Origin: an uncultured Candidatus Saccharibacteria bacterium
Lineage (GTDB): Bacteria; Patescibacteriota; Minisyncoccia; Phycocordibacterales; UBA9973
Direction of reading: 5' to 3'
DNA length: 34,337 nt
Assembly: GCA_964348775.1 (NCBI GenBank)
Contig: CAYGDR010000001.1
Location: 1 to 34,337, forward strand
The notes beneath the pieces were generated by a model. The model did no database searches. It worked only from the letters and a program-made list of their open reading frames with translations, and was not told the origin of the DNA. How positions within the stretch are numbered: position 1 is the first letter of the stretch; every line of letters starts with the position of its first letter. Position numbers and translations under genes: made by a program. Shown one piece after another: positions 15,675-24,326 of the stretch.

Positions 15675-17042
15675 TTATTGATCTTCTTTCCACTCGTCCA
15701 CAAACCAGCCACCCGACGGCCCGCCGGAGAAATTAATGTTGGCAAGACCGGATTCATAGCTTATTACCGCTCCGTTGCTTAAGTGGATTTTATATGCGGT
15801 TACTTCCTTCATAGTAGCGTTATTTGAAATTTCCACCACGCCTTCCGGCGCGTAAAGTATGGCGCTTGAAGCATTGTTGGATTGAGTTATGGCGGTAGAG
15901 CTCGTGTTGTTTCTCTGGGAGAGGACCAGCATGTAGGACCCGGCAGTTCCGGACCCTTGGGCTTCAGAATTATTGCTAAATGTGATCTCCCCAGCCGAAC
16001 TGCTCCCTCCAGTACCCGCAATTATTACTCCGCTTAGCGCGCCATAGCTTAGATCCAGCTTGATCATTGAACCGTTGCTCGCATTGATGGTCCCGGTGAC
16101 CCATACGGTGCCAGTAAGAATGAGCGTGGCATTATTTGAAAGGGTTAAGTTGCCATTGATTTTTTTGGGGCCTAAAAAAGCAGCGTCGTCGTCGAGGGTA
16201 TAACTATTGATTGTGCCACCGGCTGTAGCATCCGCCTCCCATGCATCTATTTGCTCTTCGGAGATTGGGAATTCCTCTGCCACTGGATCCTCGAAATTGC
16301 TAAGATTGGGAGTGGTTTGGGTGCCGCTTACTGTGCAGTTGGTTTTCGTATCATATGTAGCGCTTCCATTGATAGTGCAATCAGAAATACTGTCTGATAC
16401 GGCATTTCCTGAAACTGTCGCACGAAGCAGGCTGGCCGAACTAGTAGAACCATTCACTGTAATATCTTCAAGAAAATGGGCTGTAGCATTTTGATCCACT
16501 TGTATTGCGTCGATCTTGCCGGTAGCTCCAGTCGCAATTGCGGTGCCGGTGATTCGAGCACCGTTATTCCCAACAATATTTCCGTTTGAGTAGACATTGC
16601 CGTTTACTTGCGAATTATTATCCATCCGCAAACCTCCCGCTCCCACCTGTACGCCATAGCCGAAAGAAACTCCAGGAGCGGTAGAAATGGTGATTTTTGT
16701 TTTTCTTTGCAAGCTAGAAACATTCCCAAGAGAGCTGATTTCTTTTTCGCTGGCAGAAACTGCAGTGATGGTAGTGGTGGCAGAATTTGAGTTTAGGGTA
16801 ATGGTCTCGCTTGCACCTATGGTCATGCTTTTTTTTATGCGGTATACCGCATCCTCGCTTCCAGACTCGGACAAGAAATAAGACTTTTTGGAATTTAGAT
16901 TTACATTTGCCGTGCGAAACTCGCGCACAGAGGGCGAAACCAGCCCGGCGATAATGGCAAGCGAGATGAAAAGGAAGAAAATCACGGCCACCAGCATGGC
17001 TGCACCTCTAGTTGTCTTGATTTTTTGTCCTGATTTTTTCAT
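15675..17042 (-). CDS. PilX-N-like pilus-associated protein with Ser/Thr/Asn/Gly-rich beta-helix-like body (putative tip or adhesin component)
   Basis: 455 aa. N-terminal RGAAMLVAVIFFLFISLAIIAG anchor as in PilX_N domains, then repetitive NG/SG/TG-rich segments. It is the last gene of the pilin block. Confidence 0.55.
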   Translation of the reverse strand: MKKSGQKIKTTRGAAMLVAVIFFLFISLAIIAGLVSPSVREFRTANVNLNSKKSYFLSESGSEDAVYRIKKSMTIGASETITLNSNSATTTITAVSASEKEISSLGNVSSLQRKTKITISTAPGVSFGYGVQVGAGGLRMDNNSQVNGNVYSNGNIVGNNGARITGTAIATGATGKIDAIQVDQNATAHFLEDITVNGSTSSASLLRATVSGNAVSDSISDCTINGSATYDTKTNCTVSGTQTTPNLSNFEDPVAEEFPISEEQIDAWEADATAGGTINSYTLDDDAAFLGPKKINGNLTLSNNATLILTGTVWVTGTINASNGSMIKLDLSYGALSGVIIAGTGGSSSAGEITFSNNSEAQGSGTAGSYMLVLSQRNNTSSTAITQSNNASSAILYAPEGVVEISNNATMKEVTAYKIHLSNGAVISYESGLANINFSGGPSGGWFVDEWKEDQ

Positions 17043-17055
17043 TTATAATTTTCAA

Positions 17056-17574
17056 TTACTCATCATAGTCTCCGCGGAGTACGACAGTATTATAAAAATC
17101 TGTAGTGCGGCTTAGCGCATCATTATTTGATCGGATAGTCATAAAAATTTTCACCGCCTTGCCTTTTGCAGTAATTATTTCGGCAAAGGAAAGCGCGCTG
17201 ACAGAAAGATTCCCGGGATTTAAATTGCCCAAAAGAACAGAGTTTTCCCGAAATTCCACATTTGTGCCTGCAAGGATAAACTGCACAGTCTTGTTTGCTC
17301 CTCCAGCATCGGTAGAGTTCAAGTTCAAATCAGCCGCGCTTATGGAACCTATTGCATATGCCTGCCGTATCTCACGAGCCATGCGCTCCATGATATTTGC
17401 CCCTCCTAGATGATCAGACTGCACGGTGGTCTCGCGAAAGGCCGTGGTCATAGTAATCATAGAATTTATCACCGCAAGGGAAAGGAGTGCAAATAGAGAG
17501 AGATAGAACAAAAGTTCCACCATTCCATACCCAGAGTTTTTATAAGCTCTGAAATTCTTCTGGTTTTTTATCAT
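17056..17574 (-). CDS. Type IV prepilin-like minor pilin
   Basis: 172 aa. Prepilin leader ...KNSG/YGMVELLFYLSLFALLSL with Glu at +5 after the Gly cleavage site. Confidence 0.7.
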   Translation of the reverse strand: MIKNQKNFRAYKNSGYGMVELLFYLSLFALLSLAVINSMITMTTAFRETTVQSDHLGGANIMERMAREIRQAYAIGSISAADLNLNSTDAGGANKTVQFILAGTNVEFRENSVLLGNLNPGNLSVSALSFAEIITAKGKAVKIFMTIRSNNDALSRTTDFYNTVVLRGDYDE

Positions 17575-18065
17575 GATGAAAAAATATCTAAAATATAAAA
17601 CGACAAGGTTTTTGATACTGCAGTTCCAGTTTCATTCCAAGATACTGTTATCGTAACTAATTTCGTGCCAGGATCATCCGTACCGGATGCGGAAATATCG
17701 TCTGTACTATCGTCTCTATTTACATTTGCAATGCTCACAGTGCGCGTAAAACTTCCTACTGTGTTCGGCGTGGAAGAAAGGGTCCAGGTTCCTCCGAAAA
17801 ATAGAGGATAATAGAGAGACCCTGCTGTCAGATTAGAAATATTTGACCAGGCATTGTCGCGCAAGATCCGCACAGCTTCGGCCCCCTCTTCGAGGAGAAA
17901 GGAGGCCTCGGCTACATGCACTGCCTGCCTTGAAACAAAAATGGATTTTTGGGCCACGGCCATGGCAGCGAGCATGGAAACAGTGATAATGGAAGCTACT
18001 ATCACGACTTCTACCATCAAAAAACCTTTTTGGAAGTTTTTAATTTTGTAATTTCCAATTTTCAT
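17571..18065 (-). CDS. Type IV prepilin-like minor pilin
   Basis: 164 aa. Leader ...FQKG/FLMVEVVIVASIITV with Glu at +5. It overlaps the next gene by 4 nt. Confidence 0.7.
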   Translation of the reverse strand: MKIGNYKIKNFQKGFLMVEVVIVASIITVSMLAAMAVAQKSIFVSRQAVHVAEASFLLEEGAEAVRILRDNAWSNISNLTAGSLYYPLFFGGTWTLSSTPNTVGSFTRTVSIANVNRDDSTDDISASGTDDPGTKLVTITVSWNETGTAVSKTLSFYILDIFSS

Positions 18066-18066
18066 C

Positions 18067-18175
18067 CCGTTAGTAATAGGGCGCGTACGCTTATGCGATG
18101 TTATCTAATATTTTATTGCTAATAATGTGTTTCATGTCTTTGTTGGATTCTATACGTCCGCGATTACTAACGGGA
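18067..18175. repeat. 109-nt intergenic element closed by a long inverted repeat
   Basis: CCCGTTAGTAAT (18067..18078) is the perfect reverse complement of ATTACTAACGGG (18164..18175). After a 4-nt bulge the stem continues as CGCG/CGCG and ACG/CGT. The element fills most of the spacer between the pilin and the minor-pilin genes. Confidence 0.7.
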
Positions 18176-18188
18176 TTCATTAAAAATT

Positions 18189-18656
18189 TTAATTTACGCT
18201 GGCAGCTCCGGTCGAAGAGATGGTTATAGTTTTTGAGTAAGAAGAGGTGGAGATAATTATAGTGCCAGTCTTCGATGGCACTCCGTAAATCCTGCTGAAA
18301 TATAAATTGCCGGAAGTCCCGCTCACGCCTCCCAAAGTAACATTGGTGATTGACGCAGGCGCCACAATATCTATCTCTGTATTGCTGCCTGCTCCTGCGG
18401 AATATGCCGTGCCTGTAAAAATTATAACTTTATCGGATTGGAAATGCACTCCGTATTCTGAAGAATTTACCGAAGCCAGAGTGTCTCCGCGGGATTTGTT
18501 TATGGCAGAAAGCGCGTCGCTGTAAGCCGCCTTTAACACCTGTCTTTCTTTCAAGCTTGAAAACTGGGGAAGCACTACCATGACCAAAATTCCCAAAACC
18601 GCAAATGTCACGAGCACCTCAATCGGCGTAATTCCTTTGTTGTAGATACTTCTCAC
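18189..18656 (-). CDS. Type IV pilin (prepilin-type N-terminal cleavage/methylation domain)
   Basis: 155 aa, GTG start. Leader MRSIYNKG/ITPIEVLVTFAVLGILVMVV with Glu at +5. It starts 15 nt after the RT stop codon. Confidence 0.75.
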   Translation of the reverse strand: MRSIYNKGITPIEVLVTFAVLGILVMVVLPQFSSLKERQVLKAAYSDALSAINKSRGDTLASVNSSEYGVHFQSDKVIIFTGTAYSAGAGSNTEIDIVAPASITNVTLGGVSGTSGNLYFSRIYGVPSKTGTIIISTSSYSKTITISSTGAASVN

Positions 18657-18671
18657 ACGATAATCATATCA

Positions 18672-19673
18672 CTAAACCTTTTCGATCTCTATTGATTTTT
18701 TCAGTTTGAAACTGTTTCCGTGTGAAATTAGTCCAAAATATGACTGTACTGTCTCCGGCTTCGGGTTATCCCTTAGAATTTTCAACATCCTCCTCTTTGT
18801 ACTGGTTCGGAGCACTCTATACCTCGGAAAATGCACCCAGCCAAGAAAATCCACTCCGGAAGCAAAAGTTTTGATGAAAACCTTGTCTGGATGCAATTCT
18901 AGTTTCAATTTTTCTTTCAGAAACTGGGCGATATATCGCCTATATTCAGATAATTCTTTTTTGTTGGCGCTCAAGATCACGAAGTCATCTGCGTAGCGGA
19001 TATAGTACTTCACTTTCAGTTCCCTTTTTATAAATTGATCAAATTCATTCATATACACATTCACCAAAAGCTGAGAGGTTAGATTCCCGAGCGGTAAACC
19101 CTTCGACCCGGAGGCGTCGCCTCCGGGTTTTGACGAGAAACTATCAATTACCTGACCCAAAAGCCAGAGAATGTCTGTGTCAAGGATGCCCTTTGACAGG
19201 ATAGATTTTAGGATATCGTGGTCGATATTGGCGAAGAATTTCTTGATGTCGCATTTGAGAACATGGCAGGTGCGGGTGTTGTTCTTGGAAACTTTGCGGA
19301 AGAAATATCTGAAACGATCCATGGCTTTATGAGTGCCTTTGTTTATCCGGCAGGAGTATGAGTCATGGACGAACTTTTTATCAAAGTATGGGTAGAGTGC
19401 TTTATAGAGGAGATGATGTACTACTCTGTCTCTTACTGTGGCCTTATGGATGTTTCTGGGCTTGGGGTCGGAGATGTTGAAAGCTGTATAATCGCCGTGT
19501 TGGTAAGTTTTGTTTTTTAGATCGTCGAGAAGTTTGAATATATTGTCAGCCAGCTTGGCTTGAAACAAGATAATATCTTTTTTGTGTTTCTTGTCGCGCA
19601 AAAATTCTTGCCAGGCTTGGAGAAGTTTTTCTGTGGTTATGATACTATCGTAGGTATGAATAAACCTTTTCAT
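18672..19673 (-). CDS. DGR-type reverse transcriptase
   Basis: 333 aa. RT motifs include LPLGNLTSQLLVNVY (the GxxxSQ motif characteristic of DGR RTs) and IRYADDFVI (YADD). Its compact size, with no maturase, endonuclease or RNase H extension, also fits. It is adjacent to the TR. Confidence 0.9.
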   Translation of the reverse strand: MKRFIHTYDSIITTEKLLQAWQEFLRDKKHKKDIILFQAKLADNIFKLLDDLKNKTYQHGDYTAFNISDPKPRNIHKATVRDRVVHHLLYKALYPYFDKKFVHDSYSCRINKGTHKAMDRFRYFFRKVSKNNTRTCHVLKCDIKKFFANIDHDILKSILSKGILDTDILWLLGQVIDSFSSKPGGDASGSKGLPLGNLTSQLLVNVYMNEFDQFIKRELKVKYYIRYADDFVILSANKKELSEYRRYIAQFLKEKLKLELHPDKVFIKTFASGVDFLGWVHFPRYRVLRTSTKRRMLKILRDNPKPETVQSYFGLISHGNSFKLKKSIEIEKV

Positions 19674-20052
19674 AATTCTGGGACCCCCCCCCGCAGCGCC
19701 CTCGGCGCTTTTAAAAGCAAAAACGGCCTACTCTCTTTGGTTTAAAGTATACAATGACTTCCCCAAGGCGCACCGTTATATTCTGGGCGGAAAAATCGAA
19801 GATTATTTTCTCGGACTTTTAGAAAATATATTTATTTCAATATATCTTCCGCCGGAAACCAAAATACATCGCTTAATCGTAGCAATTTCCAAGCTCGATG
19901 GGATAAAGTTTTTCTTGCAAATAGCCTGGGAAAACAAGTGTGTTAGGGATATTAAATATTCGGAACTCTCCGAACAACTTCGGGAGATCGGCCGGATGCT
20001 CGGCGGCTGGAAAAAGGGGCTTGAAAAGAGTTTCGAAAAGAAAACTCCCTAG
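19660..20052 (+). CDS. Avd-like four-helix-bundle accessory protein (23S rRNA IVS protein family), opposite strand to the RT; no canonical start in frame
   Basis: The frame is open from 19660 to the TAG at 20050..20052. It translates as ...AYSLWFKVYNDFPKAHRYILGGKIEDYFLGLLENIFISIYLPPETK...KLDGIKFFLQIAWENKCVRDIKYSELSEQLREIGRMLGGWKKGLEKSFEKKTP, the pattern of CPR four-helix-bundle/Avd-family proteins as I recall it. There is no ATG, GTG or TTG before the last about 45 codons. Deleting one C from the C9 tract (19684..19692) would fuse the frame to the ATG at 19656. Confidence 0.6.
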   Translation: MNLFIILGPPPAAPSALLKAKTAYSLWFKVYNDFPKAHRYILGGKIEDYFLGLLENIFISIYLPPETKIHRLIVAISKLDGIKFFLQIAWENKCVRDIKYSELSEQLREIGRMLGGWKKGLEKSFEKKTP

Positions 20053-20066
20053 GTATGCGCTAGGGA
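20046..20066 (-). terminator. Hairpin plus U-run immediately 3' of the TR (minus strand)
   Basis: TCCCTAG-N7-CTAGGGA, followed on the minus strand by GTTTTCTTTTCG. It lies 15 nt downstream of the TR 3' end and overlaps the Avd-like stop codon on the plus strand. Confidence 0.45.
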
Positions 20067-20081
20067 GAAACATTTGAGTTT

Positions 20082-20198
20082 CGGGAGACTACATGATGCT
20101 CGTAGTCGGCGTTCCAAGTGTTGTCGTTCGAGACCGAGTTCCGGTTCACATTGAGCTGACCGTTGTCATCGAAGTTCACATTGGCAACGAAGAATTGT
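20082..20198 (-). repeat. DGR template repeat (TR)
   Basis: It aligns without gaps to 20539..20655 (offset 457 nt). In the 112-bp core, 17 of the 18 differences are positions where this copy has A on the minus strand. In the VR reading frame it carries 7 AAC and 2 AAT codons. Confidence 0.9.
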
Positions 20199-20500
20199 AC
20201 GGTGAGCCATCTACCTCACTGCCCGCCTTACCTGCAAGTTTAAAGACTGCAAAAGAGACAAAGCTGTATATTATTCGAGGCCTAAAAGCCTACCAGCGCA
20301 CCGCACCAACTTTTATGTTTTTTGTTTTAAAAAAGAATCCACTCTCCTCCAAGCCATAGCCGGGAGAATTCTCAAATTAATTTTTAAGCAATCATGGCTC
20401 GAAGTTTTTGTCCGCGAGCATTTCCAAATTGCATATTTAGTATATCAAAAAGAAAGACCCCCAGCCCAGTGACAAAGTGTCAAAGGATCCGAGGGCCCAA

Positions 20501-20515
20501 ACCCGCCTTGCGGGT
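20501..20515 (-). promoter_or_regulatory. GC-rich hairpin just downstream of the VR and target stop (candidate DGR target-recognition hairpin or terminator)
   Basis: The minus strand has ACCCGC-AAG-GCGGGT, about 23 nt past the VR 3' end and 13 nt past the stop codon. Confidence 0.45.
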
Positions 20516-20528
20516 AAAAGATAAAAAA

Positions 20529-21164
20529 CTACTGTTGCCGGGAGACTACACGATGCCCGAAGCCGGCGTACCAAGTGTAGTCGAACGAGACCGAGTCCCG
20601 GTACACGCTGAGCTGACCGCGGCCATCGAAGTACACAACGGCAACGAAGACATTGGAGAGGTCTTCGAGGACCGCTTCGCCGTCGGTGGTGCAGACGAAG
20701 AAGGTGGCGTAGCCGCCCTTGCGGAGTTTGCCTTTGTGATCGACGCAGAACTTGATGCCCTGCTCCCACTGGAGGCGCCGAGCTTCGAGCTCAGAGGCAG
20801 TCTTGCCGAGGAAATCGGCAAACTTGCCATTCACCACCAGCTTGTCCACCCGCGTCTTCGTCTTCGACGCCGGCTTGGACTTCACGCCGAGGAGCGCAGG
20901 GTCGTAGCCACCGGAGAACACCCGCTTGGCATCGTCGTCGGTAGTGGTGGCGTCGGTGGGGTCGATCTCCACACCCTCGAAGAGCGGCTCGAGGTAGACC
21001 TTCGGCTCGGGCGGAACTTCCGGCGCGGACTTCGGCTGTGTTCTCGTCAGCACCCATTCATCCCCCAAGTACTCTTGCGCGATGTCCGGCCCGCCCATCT
21101 TGTTGACAACCGCCGTCATGTCGACGCCGCCGATCAAAACCGTGTAATCGTATTTCTGAGCCAT
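20529..21164 (-). CDS. DGR target (variable) protein with C-terminal VR
   Basis: 211 aa, preceded by a strong SD (GGAGGTGAAAAATG). The C-terminal ...NVFVAVVYFDGRGQLSVYRDSVSFDYTWYAGFGHRVVSRQQ is encoded by the VR, and its ending resembles the GFR-type terminus of C-type-lectin-fold DGR targets. GC is about 60-67% in hand-counted lines. I see no obvious signal peptide. Confidence 0.85.
   Translation of the reverse strand: MAQKYDYTVLIGGVDMTAVVNKMGGPDIAQEYLGDEWVLTRTQPKSAPEVPPEPKVYLEPLFEGVEIDPTDATTTDDDAKRVFSGGYDPALLGVKSKPASKTKTRVDKLVVNGKFADFLGKTASELEARRLQWEQGIKFCVDHKGKLRKGGYATFFVCTTDGEAVLEDLSNVFVAVVYFDGRGQLSVYRDSVSFDYTWYAGFGHRVVSRQQ
20539..20655 (-). repeat. DGR variable repeat (VR)
   Basis: This is the counterpart of the TR. 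TR AAC/AAT codons appear here as GTT, TAC, CGC, AGC, TAC, GAC, TTC, TAC and TAC. The VR ends 7 nt before the target stop codon. Confidence 0.9.
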
Positions 21165-21259
21165 TTTTCACCTCCGACTTATAGTCGGCACTTTTCGCAT
21201 ACCATATAGGCAGCGCGCCGCGAAATGCGGCATTTCAAAGACCACGAGTATTCTTATAT

Positions 21260-21288
21260 ATTATACACTTTCTAAGCAAAAAAGTCAA
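21260..21288 (-). promoter_or_regulatory. Near-consensus sigma70 promoter for the DGR target gene, inside the 3' end of pilC
   Basis: Minus strand: TTGACT (21283..21288), a 17-nt spacer, then TATAAT (21260..21265). An approximately 88-nt leader follows, containing small GC hairpins and the SD. Confidence 0.65.
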
Positions 21289-22513
21289 TAAATTGCAAGT
21301 AGCCGATGTTGCCAAGTATCGAATAAAGCGGAGAGATCATGGATATCGCAAAAAAGCCTACTCCTCCGCCAATCACCACCATAAGGAGAGGCTCAATGAT
21401 GGTGGAGAGGTTTTTGGTTTTATTTTCAATCTCTTCCTCGTAAAATATAGCGATGTCTAGAAGCATATCGGAAAGCTTGCCGGTTTCTTCGCCCACCTGG
21501 ATCATTTCTGACATCATCACCGGATAAAGTTTCTGGTTTTCCTGAAAAGTCTGATAGAAAGGCGAGCCTTTTTCTATTGCAGTCTTTGTGGCTTCTAGCA
21601 CTCGGCGATAATATATATTCTGCACCACATCTTCGGTGATCTCGACCGCTCTAGTAATAGAAACCCCCGAGAGAAGAAGCGAAGATAGCGTCCTTGCCGT
21701 ACGAGCGGTATTTAATTCCCTGTCCAAAGTGCCGATAACAGGCATCCGGATAACCAGGTAGTCTATGTACTTGGAAAGAATTTTAGATCGGATAAGCGCA
21801 AAGATCGCGACAAAAGCGGAAATAACTATTAGAAATGTAAGGATTAGGTGATTGGAAAAGAAATTGCCCATCCAAATGAGCACCCTGGTCGAAGTCGGAA
21901 GCACTACCCCAAGCTCTTTGAATGTGCCGGCAAGCGTGGGCACAACAAAAGCAAACATGAGTATGCCGATAATGAGCATGGCAGACATTATCACTCCTGG
22001 GTAAATCAGGGCTCCGCCTATTTTTTTGTTTAGGGCATGGGCTTTTTCTAAATTCGCGCCGATTTCGCCAAGGGCGTTCGACAAATTTCCTGACTCCTCT
22101 CCGGCGCGGGTCATGGAAACAAAAAGGCTGGAAAAGACATCAGGGAATTTTGCCAGGCCGGAAGAAAGCGTGCCTCCTTGGTTTATGTCATTTCCCAAGG
22201 AAATTAGAATTTTTTTGAAAGCCTGGTTCTTGGTCTGCTTTTCAAGCACCGAAAGCGCTCGCGCGAGAGAAAGGCCGGCGCGGAGCATTCCGCCCAAGTT
22301 CTTTGTAAAAATTATCTGCTCGGCTGCACTTACCCTGCCGAAAAACCTTTCAAAAAAAGCTGTAAAGTTGAAACCCTCCGTCTTTTCGTTCACGGATATC
22401 GGAGTATTGCCTTTGGCCCTTAAGTCTTTAGAAAGGGCAAATCGGTCCGGGGCCTCGAGCACTCCTTCTATCACTTCCCCTGTCTTTGTTTTTGCTTTAT
22501 ATTTGAATAGCAT
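21272..22513 (-). CDS. pilC: Type IV pilus assembly platform protein PilC (GspF family)
   Basis: 413 aa. Two GspF-type repeats with three TM segments, and typical LSxGxxLxxAL blocks. Confidence 0.9.
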   Translation of the reverse strand: MLFKYKAKTKTGEVIEGVLEAPDRFALSKDLRAKGNTPISVNEKTEGFNFTAFFERFFGRVSAAEQIIFTKNLGGMLRAGLSLARALSVLEKQTKNQAFKKILISLGNDINQGGTLSSGLAKFPDVFSSLFVSMTRAGEESGNLSNALGEIGANLEKAHALNKKIGGALIYPGVIMSAMLIIGILMFAFVVPTLAGTFKELGVVLPTSTRVLIWMGNFFSNHLILTFLIVISAFVAIFALIRSKILSKYIDYLVIRMPVIGTLDRELNTARTARTLSSLLLSGVSITRAVEITEDVVQNIYYRRVLEATKTAIEKGSPFYQTFQENQKLYPVMMSEMIQVGEETGKLSDMLLDIAIFYEEEIENKTKNLSTIIEPLLMVVIGGGVGFFAISMISPLYSILGNIGYLQFIDFFA

Positions 22514-22580
22514 CCCGGTACTAAAATTTTAAACTTTTATTTATAGTGGTCATTTTTTGTAATCAAAAATTTAGTACGGG
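22514..22580. repeat. Imperfect inverted repeat spanning the pilB-pilC spacer
   Basis: CCCGGTACTAAAATTTT (22514..22530) pairs with AAAAATTTAGTACGGG (22565..22580), with two single-base bulges. The element begins at the base after the pilC start codon position and ends 6 nt before the pilB stop. Confidence 0.6.
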
Positions 22581-22586
22581 ACAGAT

Positions 22587-24326
22587 CTATTCAGAAACCA
22601 CCCTAAATACTTCCTCCAAGGTGGTCACGCCCAAAACCGCCTGAAATACTCCGTCTTCGATCATAGTCATCATGCCTTCTTTCTTTGCCTGCGCCTCTAT
22701 TTCATCCTGGGAGCTGCCGTGAACCACCATTTCCTTTATGGCCGCGCTCATTTTAAGCACTTCGTGTATGCCTGTACGGCCGGAGTAGCCGTCTTCGGAC
22801 TCAGGGCTTGGTTTTGCTTTTTGGAAAGGAACTTTGTCCCAGGAAATGCTTGGGTCGATAATATTTTCTTTTTTCAGCATCTCGAGCGTGCGATCGAGGT
22901 CTACAATCTTTGCTAGGTTTTTAACTTCGTCGTCTGACAGAAAATATTCTTCTTTGCTCGGGCTTAATTTTCTGACCAACCTTTGTGCCATGATTATTTT
23001 TACAGTGGAAATGATAAGAAAAGGCTCCACTCCCATGTCGATAAGCCTAGGGATGGCTCCGGCGGCAGAATTGGTGTGGATAGTAGACAGAACCAAATGG
23101 CCCGTAAGCGAAGCGTTGATAGCAAGGCCCGCAGTCTCCACATCTCTTATCTCGCCCACCATCACAATATCCGGGTCTTGCCGGAGAAGAGACCGCAAGC
23201 CATTTGCAAATGTGAGCCCGATCTCCGGCTTTACTTGGGTCTGGTTCACTCTTGGCATCTGGTATTCAATAGGGTCTTCTACTGTCGAGATATTTACCTC
23301 CGGCTTATTCAAAATATCAAGCATTGTGTAAAGCGTAGTGGTCTTCCCAGAGCCTGTGGGCCCGGTTGCCAGCACCATGCCCGTTTTTAATTTGAGCGAT
23401 GCATATATCCTCTCCAAACTCTCTCCATGAAAGCCTAAAGTTTCAAGAGTATAGCCATGAGTGTTTTCTTTCAAAATTCTGATCACCGTCTTTTCGCCGA
23501 AAAAAGTGGGCAGAGTAGAAACACGGAAAGAAATCTTTTCGCCGTTCTGGTCTATCTTAAATCTGCCGTCTTGCGGAAGGCGCTTTTCGTCAAGCTTTAA
23601 GTTCGAAAGGACTTTGATGCGGGCAGTAATCCCGGATCCTGCGCTTTTATCAAGAACCATTGCATCATGCAGTATGCCATCAATGCGGTATCTCACTGTC
23701 AGATCTTTTTCGCCTGGTTCAATGTGTATATCAGAAGCATTTTGGAGTATCGCGTGAAAAATGAGCGAGTCCACTATCTTTACCACCGGCAAGTCTTCTG
23801 CCAGCTCTTTGTCAGACTTATCGCTGTCTCCCTTGCTAGAATCCCGCATCGAGTCGGATTCTTTTTGGATGATGTTGCCGAATTCTGCCTGGAGACTCTT
23901 TCGATACTGCACCAGCATGGACCGGATGGAAGCTTCGTCCGTCAGGCGAGGCAGAATTTTCATGCCGGAGCGCTTCTTTATAAAGTCTATAACCGGAAGA
24001 TCTTCCACATCAAGCATGGCCACTTCCAAGCCCAGCTGGCTTTTTTTGTAGGCAATAATATTGTAGTTTCTGGCAATCGGCTCGGGCACCAGAGAGAGCA
24101 CGGAAAAATCTATTTTTTGATTTTCGAGACTGACAAAAGGAATGCCTAGCGCAAAAGCCTCCATCCTCCGAAGGTCGGATTCAGAAATACTCCCGGAAGA
24201 CAAGAGAATGTCTCCGACTTTTTGATTTTTCTCTTCCGCTTTTTTCTTGGCGTCTTCAAACTGCTCCCTGGTTACAAGTTTTGAATCTAAAATAATCTTT
24301 TGGAACTCTGTCTCATCTATCTGCAT
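22587..24326 (-). CDS. pilB: Type IV pilus assembly ATPase PilB (GspE family)
   Basis: 579 aa. T2SSE N-terminal domain, Walker A GPTGSGKTTT, Asp box, Walker B and His box (LVLSTIHTN). Confidence 0.93.
   Translation of the reverse strand: MQIDETEFQKIILDSKLVTREQFEDAKKKAEEKNQKVGDILLSSGSISESDLRRMEAFALGIPFVSLENQKIDFSVLSLVPEPIARNYNIIAYKKSQLGLEVAMLDVEDLPVIDFIKKRSGMKILPRLTDEASIRSMLVQYRKSLQAEFGNIIQKESDSMRDSSKGDSDKSDKELAEDLPVVKIVDSLIFHAILQNASDIHIEPGEKDLTVRYRIDGILHDAMVLDKSAGSGITARIKVLSNLKLDEKRLPQDGRFKIDQNGEKISFRVSTLPTFFGEKTVIRILKENTHGYTLETLGFHGESLERIYASLKLKTGMVLATGPTGSGKTTTLYTMLDILNKPEVNISTVEDPIEYQMPRVNQTQVKPEIGLTFANGLRSLLRQDPDIVMVGEIRDVETAGLAINASLTGHLVLSTIHTNSAAGAIPRLIDMGVEPFLIISTVKIIMAQRLVRKLSPSKEEYFLSDDEVKNLAKIVDLDRTLEMLKKENIIDPSISWDKVPFQKAKPSPESEDGYSGRTGIHEVLKMSAAIKEMVVHGSSQDEIEAQAKKEGMMTMIEDGVFQAVLGVTTLEEVFRVVSE

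Follow-up and report, generated by a model that had tools for sequence, protein, structure and literature searches.

In the DGR of Bordetella phage, cDNA synthesis needs a complex of the reverse transcriptase (RT) with the accessory protein Avd, and we know of no report of a repeat tract in this Avd (bAvd). Little has, as far as we are aware, been established about the regulation of DGRs, and to keep hypermutating a ligand-binding protein that already works should come at a cost. Known switchable systems include phasevarions, in which repeats control mod methyltransferases, and mutS or mutL switches operated by a repeat or a prophage, while contingency loci have so far been found mostly in host-adapted pathogens. 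Among CPR bacteria, architecture B3, TR-(avd)-RT, makes up 90% of the DGR set according to the accessible text of Wu et al. (2018, NAR, PMC5758913); that text describes the architecture and makes no mention of an avd homopolymer or frame variation; its only "frame shift" is an unrelated one, and the word "pseudogene" does not occur. Roux et al. (2021, PMC8144416) reported below-average DGR activity for the Patescibacteria clade and nowhere mention Avd. Our search of the literature on DGRs and Avd for repeat tracts, phase variation or slippage found no description of an avd tract.

The window, by which we mean the whole 34,337-nt stretch of DNA analysed, carries a complete DGR on its minus strand, with target gene and variable repeat (VR), template repeat (TR) and RT gene, together with an avd gene that lies between TR and RT and is encoded on the plus strand. 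The RT gene (18672..19673, minus strand; 333 aa) matches RVT_1 with 91 bits and adjoins a TR (about 20082..20193, minus strand) that lies upstream of it on the same strand; the spacer between them is 408 nt, the length given in an earlier note on this DNA. The TR is a 112-nt repeat 84% identical to the VR (20539..20650, minus strand), which forms the 3' end of the target gene and ends 10 nt before its stop, and 17 of the 18 TR/VR mismatches fall at TR adenines. It is on this RT match and spacing, on the near-exclusive variation at TR adenines and on the 3'-terminal position of the VR in the target ORF that we assign the cassette to the DGRs. The target gene itself (20529..21164, minus strand; 211 aa) is a GC-rich island (59-64% GC) that yielded no Pfam or NCBIfam match.

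The earlier note had remarked that avd runs antisense to the target, TR and RT. The orientation is as it described, but it is no oddity: in the window and in nearly all usable relatives avd lies on the reverse strand between TR and RT, the ordinary B3 arrangement of CPR DGRs. The RTs of related loci are 59-75% identical to that of the window and divergent from avd, and the comparison of orthologous DGRs that the note had proposed finds this divergent arrangement in almost every genome-contig locus whose upstream sequence could be used. A terminator-like hairpin (CTCCCTAG-7 nt-CTAGGGAG with a T-run; 20035..20067, minus strand) lies 14 nt after the TR and overlaps the avd stop codon; at least 30 of 95 unique relatives have other perfect stems at this site, which may act as a terminator. 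The candidate avd promoter is a weak sigma-70-like match (19516..19544, plus strand; 9 of 12 consensus matches) inside the RT 5' coding region, from a scan that returned weak consensus matches only, at 4 sites versus 2.0 expected, and that carries no weight as evidence.

The plus-strand frame 19660..20052 (131 codons, with its core from about 19702) is stop-free up to the TAG at 20050-20052 and translates as INLFIILGPPPAAPSALLKAK...KKTP*. Its product matches Pfam bAvd (PF22296) with 47.7 bits, above the gathering score of 40, and NCBIfam DivGenRetAVD with E=2e-15 and 56.9 bits, under the equivalog cut-off of 80; a sequence-level search of the PDB with the Avd profile gave no match. An AlphaFold (AF2) model built from 41 homologues (pLDDT 88.6) is a four-helix bundle, with helices at residues 13-33, 37-61, 66-92 and 98-129 and an N-terminal tail (residues 1-11) that is predicted to be disordered. 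In Foldseek this model matches 2gsc, 2rld, 4dwl and 8ub7 at TM 0.7-0.9; the comparison with Bordetella phage Avd (4dwl) gives TM 0.74/0.90 and an rmsd of 1.5 Å, and the match to 8ub7 is to the Avd chains of a DGR RNP. The window protein also keeps all 45 columns that are invariant across a 41-sequence alignment. With a match to the curated bAvd sequence model and a four-helix-bundle fold like that of bAvd, this ORF is a genuine Avd gene, as the earlier note had proposed and as the Pfam search it called for bears out.

The first ATG, GTG or TTG in this frame is, as had been noticed before, only in its last third, a TTG at 19915 (codon 86 of 131). The probable start codon is the ATG at 19656..19658 (plus strand), and its use as the avd start is suggested by homologues that begin MNKLSHISGPPPAAPS... 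at the equivalent ATG. Between this ATG and the Avd core stands a run of nine C (C9; 19684..19692, plus strand; G9 on the minus strand), the sole G or C run of at least 7 in the 34 kb window, which we propose to be a hypermutable repeat tract in the avd 5' coding region and which is here out of frame (OFF). The ATG is one base out of register with the Avd frame, and the reading frame that it opens (19656..19745, plus strand) encodes a 29-aa peptide, MNKPFHNSGTPPRSALGAFKSKNGLLSLV, before a TAA stop at 19743-19745. Removing one C would join ATG and Avd frame, as was seen earlier, and adding two would do the same; the two are in frame only at 3n+2 C, that is, at C8 or C11. Initiation downstream of the tract was considered and rejected, the first canonical start of close relatives lying no earlier than core codon 28, where its use would remove helix 1. 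The start of avd (ATGAATAAACCTTTTCAT) overlaps RT codons 1-6 (MKRFIH) in antiparallel orientation over 18 nt (19656..19673), an overlap also present in close relatives, some of which use one CATG for both starts.

The same sequence exists with another tract length. A Logan contig, L068, is otherwise identical to the window and has C11, which is in frame and reads MNKPFHNSGTPPPAAPSALL; the in-frame partner foreseen in the earlier note was C8, which would indeed join the frame, but the copy found is C11. Among the other copies of the window strain sought by exact-protein look-ups (RT, downstream pseudopilin-like and PilC-like proteins), only L068 spans the tract, and the remaining same-strain contigs end inside the RT or before the DGR. 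Tract length differs in eight contig sets with identical flanks, defined as 150 nt upstream and 200 nt downstream of the tract. Nothing but the tract indel distinguishes the members of the pairs L007/L098, L011/L088, L038/L151 and window/L068 over 3.2-3.4 kb, and the A8 and T8 runs in the same overlaps are unchanged. Six of the eight sets pair an allele whose ATG is in frame with one that is out of frame. As at contingency loci, tract length thus varies between otherwise identical genomes, and the changes, as predicted from the reading frames, swap a full-length for a truncated product. Differences in length between assemblies could partly stem from Illumina or assembler behaviour at long G/C runs, and some MAG contigs with the tract have a coverage of 1-3x only.

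The tract is shared by related loci drawn from independent MAGs and metagenomes; the relatives found are Nomurabacteria, Paceibacterota, Uhrbacteria and further CPR MAGs. Of 117 unique loci, 106 have an uninterrupted run of C6-C15 immediately upstream of the Avd core, C9 being the modal length and C10 the next, and three further loci have (GA)n or (CA)n at the site: (GA)8 in L032, and (CA)15 in L048 and (CA)13 in L052, on either side of the in-frame number of 14. Away from the tract position, 539 kb of related loci hold just two other G/C runs of at least 7. Compared at the sequence level, the frame states of the 106 loci look randomised: an ATG is in frame in 35, one C fewer would be needed in 42 and one C more in 18, while 10 have GTG or TTG as their only in-frame start and one is without an ATG. 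About two thirds of the consensus sequences are out of frame with the upstream ATG. A layout with the ATG 28 nt before C9 and one base off is common to the window and to L002, L009, L014, L018, L026 and L027. Some relatives have a second ATG (CATG common with the RT start) in another frame, and the definition of OFF may vary by locus. In the window the G9 ends 10 nt before the RT ATG, just upstream of it as the earlier note had said, and in the window and close relatives together this distance is 7-14 nt (mostly 10-11); distant relatives have the C run 17-38 nt from the RT ATG, yet still adjoining the Avd core. Seven public contigs start inside or just past the tract, and such breaks are only suggestive of within-population switching; N-terminal truncation is frequent among the public Avd annotations in these clusters.

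Synonymous sites are saturated between related loci (dS about 1.5), and the run is never interrupted. For avd, dN/dS is 0.041 in OFF-OFF pairs and 0.058 in ON-ON pairs (about 0.05 overall), and a single locus of 136 carries an internal stop. Given this dN/dS and the saturation of synonymous sites, the run is selected at the level of DNA and not of peptide: an uninterrupted repeat of hypermutable length in the 5' coding region has been kept by selection where neutral sites have diverged. The conserved Pro codon neighbouring the tract is CCT in 35 cases, CCG in 7, CCC in 5 and CCA in 4, and CCC accounts for 18% of Pro codons in the window. Three-base periodicity of variation starts right after the tract; the six bases adjoining it (GCAGCG) are conserved even at third codon positions, and the codon after the tract differs between near and far groups. 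In 13 loci without a canonical start, the stretch from the upstream stop to the tract offers no near-cognate start either; in L017 just GAC separates the two. This comparison shows that the tract lies within translated sequence. A junction peptide such as NSGTPPPAAPSALLK would tell which frame is translated, and CCACCTCCA is an example of a frame-locked tract sequence.

We favour, with a probability of roughly 65%, the explanation that the tract is a slipped-strand contingency switch that toggles Avd translation and therefore DGR activity. A phase switch was one of three options offered in the earlier note, and it is the one that the comparative data favour; the C9 at the start of avd is probably not a defect. 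Translation would begin at ATG 19656 and run through the tract, which would code for a disordered, Pro-rich N-terminal tail. At 3n+2 C (C8 or C11) the ribosome would enter the four-helix-bundle frame and make an Avd of about 131 aa, and at C9, as in the window, it would terminate after 29 aa and leave little or no Avd. The modelled disorder of the tail suggests that Avd would tolerate changes in tract length. By analogy, the window RT would require Avd as a pentamer that binds it for cDNA synthesis, and because cDNA synthesis in the Bordetella phage system needs the RT-Avd complex, loss of Avd should freeze the VR. Slipped-strand mispairing in replication would change tract length reversibly, although we infer both the rate of switching and its reversibility, and OFF alleles would presumably not be partly rescued by slippage in transcription or translation. 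A population would then be a mix of DGR ON and DGR OFF cells, most of them holding a frozen variable protein while a minority diversify, and the tract would serve as a bet-hedging governor on a hypermutation system. We also consider it reasonably probable that a large clade of CPR (Patescibacteria) DGRs evolved a hypermutable repeat at the beginning of the avd coding sequence and has long retained it, mostly as poly-C and in some lineages as (GA)n or (CA)n, and that this repeat turns targeted hypermutation ON and OFF stochastically, heritably and reversibly. The below-average DGR activity of the Patescibacteria clade (PMC8144416) is consistent with a switch.

Alternatively, the C run may be slippery in expression, such that out-of-frame alleles constitutively yield Avd at a low set level with no ON/OFF states, although we think this unlikely. 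The routes would be +1 (or -1) frameshifting of tRNA-Pro on CCC_C or RNA polymerase slippage on a homopolymer of 9-12 nt, and both kinds of sequence are known to be slippage-prone: tRNA-Pro can re-pair with a C run in each of the frames, and transcription tends to slip on homopolymers of at least 9. Alleles that need one C fewer form the largest class (42/106) and are under strong purifying selection, and an ATG 28 nt upstream of C9 and one base off recurs in many species. The excess of alleles with one C too many (42 versus 18), together with this recurrent layout, speaks against a switch in that it could mark a functional state, reached through +1 ribosomal frameshifting or RNA polymerase slippage. 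However, all three registers are present (35, 42 and 18) and no single shift direction is conserved, nor did we find the conserved slippery or stall context of a programmed ribosomal frameshift, and near and far groups have no conserved codon in common after the tract. Furthermore, the dinucleotide repeats that take the same site suit slipped-strand mispairing well but ribosomal slippage poorly, and the length differences between otherwise identical contigs change the frame directly in DNA. Recoding is in any case compatible with phase variation, as leaky expression on top of it. A different concern is that the true tract is always in frame and C9 is a homopolymer miscall. Short-read platforms are prone to error in G/C homopolymers of 9-12, the tract is a point at which contigs break, the second assembly of the window sequence has C11, and the coverage of some MAG contigs is very low. 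Such an artefact is nonetheless improbable. It would mean that some two thirds of over 100 independent consensus sequences are incorrect, it is at odds with the A8 and T8 runs of the same alignments, which are constant in length, and it leaves unexplained both the conservation of the run through saturated synonymous divergence and the (GA)n or (CA)n at its site. The assembly error allowed for in the earlier note thus fails to explain tracts conserved in 106/117 loci, their dinucleotide replacements and the two thirds of loci that are out of frame.

Little credence can be given to a non-canonical start in frame with C9 (ATA 19672, ATT 19675, CTG 19678 or ATA 19660), with which the gene would be ON and the tract would simply read PPP. 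These codons do occur in the window frame, which is open from 19660 onwards, and L005, L015, L016 and L025 have an ATG (CATG common with the RT start) at the position of the window's ATA 19672, in frame with C9. ATA, ATT and CTG initiate very poorly in the bacteria studied so far, however; the 13 start-less loci are without a near-cognate codon between the upstream stop and the tract, and neither the length polymorphism nor the nucleotide-level conservation of the run would be explained. It is no more credible that the run works mainly for the RT, as an SD-like element, a 5'UTR element or a promoter spacer for RT or TR-RT RNA, with incidental effects on the Avd frame. While it is true that the G-run of the window and close relatives lies 7-14 nt from the RT ATG with no other purine-rich element between them, and that the adjacent GCAGCG is conserved even at third codon positions, the run of distant relatives is 17-38 nt from the RT ATG but fixed beside the Avd core, the (GA)n and (CA)n loci have no G-run, and the proximal end of the run stays equally far from the RT ATG when the length changes. 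The spacing in distant relatives rules out the G-run as a general Shine-Dalgarno element of the RT, and the earlier suggestion that the tract tunes RT initiation finds no support as a general rule. Least credible is the proposal, also made in that note, that avd is a decaying accessory gene turned pseudogene by a frameshift. The window allele is without an in-frame canonical start and its ATG product ends after 29 aa, but the 131-codon frame is intact, the 45 invariant columns are all kept, internal stops occur in just 1/136 loci, and dN/dS among out-of-frame alleles is 0.04, like that of in-frame alleles. An in-frame allele of identical sequence exists as well (L068, C11), and this allele and the dN/dS of OFF alleles effectively refute a pseudogene.

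If the contingency switch is real, a switch on an essential cofactor would be a simple population-level answer to the cost of hypermutation, in which one mutation-prone sequence decides whether another mutation machine runs. DGR regulation would become testable by setting tract length against VR diversity in existing time-series metagenomes, and contingency loci would extend to uncultured CPR bacteria. The switch may also help account for the lower apparent DGR activity of Patescibacteria (PMC8144416). These avd genes are truncated or missed by gene callers and assemblies break at the tract, and DGR surveys may count such cassettes as being without an intact Avd.

Our findings fit into a comparison with several known systems. 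Like BPP-1 bAvd (4dwl; RT-Avd-RNA, 8ub7), the window Avd is a four-helix bundle with a bAvd match, and its gene adjoins the TR and RT of a cassette with adenine-specific TR/VR differences; unlike bAvd, to which it is about 16% identical, it is encoded on the opposite strand between TR and RT, its start overlaps that of the RT, and it has a putatively hypermutable repeat in its first codons. In gene order and orientation, with avd reversed between TR and RT, the window is like CPR architecture B3 as it appears in the accessible text of PMC5758913. With the poly-G/C contingency loci of Campylobacter, Neisseria, Haemophilus and Helicobacter (PMC4965091, PMC6321876) it shares an uninterrupted G/C run of at least 7 in the 5' coding region, a modal length of about 9, length differences between otherwise identical genomes and a predicted toggle between full-length and truncated products. 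It differs from them in that its hosts are uncultured CPR bacteria and in that the switched gene would be a mutagenic RT cofactor and not a surface structure or a restriction-modification enzyme. Frameshift and slippage sites (the +1 site of prfB; dnaX and the A/T runs of IS elements) likewise place a homopolymer between a start codon and a functional out-of-frame ORF, yet here we found no fixed register, conserved flanking codon or stimulatory element, and the length varies in the DNA. Finally, as in phasevarions and switchable mutators, a repeat in one gene would switch a wider programme, which in the case of mutS and mutL is the mutation rate itself; in contrast to those genome-wide effects, the mutagenesis governed by this tract would be confined to the variable region of one target gene.

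The minus strand of the window carries a complete diversity-generating retroelement (DGR), in which a 211-aa target ORF (20529..21164) ends in the variable repeat (VR, 20539-20650) and is accompanied by a 112-nt template repeat (TR, about 20082-20193) and a 333-aa reverse transcriptase (RT, 18672..19673; RVT_1, 91 bits); 17 of 18 TR/VR mismatches lie at TR adenines. The plus-strand frame between TR and RT, open for 131 codons (19660..20052), is a real Avd. It matches Pfam bAvd significantly (47.7 bits, where the gathering score is 40) and NCBIfam DivGenRetAVD at E=2e-15, under the equivalog cut-off, and its AlphaFold model (41 homologues, pLDDT 88.6) has helices at residues 13-33, 37-61, 66-92 and 98-129 and resembles Avd both from Bordetella phage (4dwl; TM 0.74/0.90) and in the DGR ribonucleoprotein 8ub7. 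The earlier note had described an Avd-family frame with no early start codon and a run of C near its 5' end, an observation that holds in every detail: the earliest ATG, GTG or TTG is the TTG at 19915 (codon 86), the C9 run at 19684-19692 is the sole G or C run of at least 7 in the 34 kb window, and the ATG at 19656 misses the Avd frame by one base and encodes a 29-aa peptide (end at 19745).

The same note singled out the antisense placement of avd. The layout is real, but it is normal for DGRs of the Patescibacteria (CPR) and already known: Wu et al. 2018 (PMC5758913) name the order TR-(avd)-RT, in which avd is encoded on the reverse strand, architecture B3, and it makes up 90% of their CPR set. 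An Avd-family profile search of species-representative genomes yielded 67 loci, all or nearly all from CPR MAGs (Nomurabacteria, Paceibacterota, Uhrbacteria, Falkowbacteria and others). Almost all of those with usable upstream sequence have an RT (59-75% identical) divergent from avd, its ATG 22-67 nt before the Avd core, or 96 nt in one locus. The avd and RT ATGs overlap antiparallel by 18 nt (ATGAATAAAnnnnnnCAT) in the window (19656-19673) and close relatives, and in some relatives (L005, L015, L016, L025, L099) one CATG palindrome supplies both start codons, there serving as a second avd start in another frame than the distal ATG.

Other features of the cassette bear on its transcription and its target. 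A terminator-like hairpin (CTCCCTAG / CTAGGGAG) followed by TTTTCTTTT stands 14 nt past the TR (20035-20067, minus strand), overlapping the avd stop and the conserved C-terminal KKTP codons, and at least 30 of 95 relatives have other perfect stems at this site. This could be where the TR RNA stops or folds, and RT would then not simply be co-transcribed through antisense avd. The target gene, with no match in Pfam or NCBIfam, is a sharp GC island (59-64%) between flanks of 40-45%, among them RT and avd at about 41%. A type IV pilus / type II secretion-like cluster (15675-24326) surrounds the cassette and includes a T2SSF (PilC-like) gene identified by Pfam (21272-22513) and, by our reading of the translations, a PilB-like ATPase (22587-24326) and four ORFs whose hydrophobic N-termini resemble those of pilins (15675-18656); the diversified protein may be associated with a pilus.

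The C run is a general feature of these genes. Adding 80 metagenome loci to the genome loci and removing duplicates gave 117 unique loci, and in 106 an uninterrupted C run of 6 to 15 stands directly 5' of the Avd core (C8 in 14, C9 in 40, C10 in 27, C11 in 15). Just two other G/C runs of at least 7 occur in 539 kb of related loci, one of them a second C9 run about 1.7 kb from avd (L058:1252-1260). Synonymous sites are saturated between loci (pS 0.67-0.89, dS about 1.5); a conserved proline two codons past the tract is encoded by CCT 35 times, CCG 7, CCC 5 and CCA 4, and CCC accounts for only 18% of proline codons in the window. The tract encodes residues 1-11, which are predicted to be disordered, so the protein should accommodate more or fewer prolines. 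Three loci have other repeats at the tract position, each out of frame by one repeat unit: (GA)8 at L032:2977-2992, and (CA)15 at L048:2967-2996 and (CA)13 at L052:2971-2996, both one unit from the in-frame number of 14. In seven loci without a repeat, the core is preceded at 7-14 codons by a plain ATG. By these comparisons, the run is kept by selection on DNA, not on peptide. Right after the tract, GCAGCG (19693-19698 in the window) is nearly invariant even at third codon positions (entropy 0-0.14), a conservation that exceeds coding needs.

Three-base periodicity of base variability starts at the first conserved codons past the run, so translation must start upstream of that point, and since a C run cannot hold a start codon, upstream of the tract. 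Of the 106 tract-bearing loci, 61 have no canonical in-frame start there (42 need one C fewer, 18 need one C more and one has no ATG), and 13 of these 61 likewise lack CTG, ATT, ATC and ATA; an upstream ATG is in frame in 35 and only GTG or TTG in 10. The next canonical start in close relatives comes at core codon 28 or later. Gene decay, one of three options raised earlier, is ruled out by a dN/dS of 0.041 among out-of-frame alleles, against 0.058 among in-frame alleles, and by an internal stop in only 1 of 136 loci.

Tract length also varies among sequences that are otherwise the same. In eight sets, contigs share flanks at 100% identity over 150 nt upstream and 200 nt downstream and have tracts of different length: L007/L098 (9/10), L011 and L086/L088 (9/8), L027 and L126/L075 and L076 (9/8), L038 and L148/L151 (12/11), L106/L107 (9/10), L115/L117 (11/10), L143/L145 (12/11) and the window/L068 (9/11). 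In six of the eight, the ATG is in frame in one member but not in the other. Full alignments of L007/L098, L011/L088, L038/L151 and window/L068 show the tract indel as the sole difference across 3.2-3.4 kb, with A8 and T8 runs in the overlaps unchanged. The window's partner is a Logan contig (run ERR3094296) whose 3177 aligned bases depart from the window only by a tract of C11. This length brings the ATG at 19656 into frame, and the product, MNKPFHNSGTPPPAAPSALL..., agrees with the family consensus PPPAAPSALL. Seven public contigs (L022, L053, L077, L092, L118, L121, L132) start inside or at most 6 nt after the tract, which suggests that assembly breaks there, owing to varying tract lengths or to a fall in coverage. 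Many database Avd entries (clusters of proteins P0001, P0008 and P0003) are N-terminally truncated, at 75-112 aa against 124-132, apparently because gene callers resort to internal start codons in out-of-frame alleles.

Pure sequencing error, another of the three options, is a very improbable source of the out-of-frame tracts, as it leaves unexplained the conservation of the run, the dinucleotide repeats at the same site and the two thirds of consensus sequences that are out of frame. The main rival is recoding, in which alleles with one C too many are leaky, whether by slippage of RNA polymerase or by +1 frameshifting of tRNA-Pro. The excess of such alleles over those with one C too few (42 vs 18) and the dominance of C9 and C10 may be a sign of it; they may also come from mutational equilibrium of G/C tracts or from selection for the out-of-frame state. 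We consider recoding unlikely as the explanation, and it could also operate on top of phase variation. That the minus-strand G run acts as a Shine-Dalgarno element for RT is possible in close relatives, with 7-14 nt between it and the RT ATG, but this does not generalize, since 17-38 nt separate the two in distant relatives.

Of the three options, the phase switch is the probable one. At the level of sequence, avd has the marks of a simple-sequence contingency locus: its 5' coding region holds a hypermutable repeat that is maintained by selection, differs in length between otherwise identical genomes and, by its length changes, toggles the product between full-length and truncated forms. Tract length would thereby switch the Avd cofactor. 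The RT-Avd complex is needed for cDNA synthesis in the Bordetella phage DGR, so the effect is likely to be ON/OFF control of mutagenic retrohoming, with the window likely carrying an OFF allele (C9). The below-average activity of the Patescibacteria DGR clade reported by Roux et al. 2021 (PMC8144416) is consistent with such control, though unspecific as evidence.

The Avd and the DGR of the window each add a member to a known kind. Full-text searches of the literature, not extending to the CPR DGR survey of Paul et al. 2017, and term searches and sections of Wu et al. 2018 and Roux et al. 2021 yielded no account of frameshifting, phase variation or a repeat tract in avd. Slipped-strand phase variation is a known mechanism; what is new here is its apparent application, through avd, to the control of a diversity-generating retroelement.
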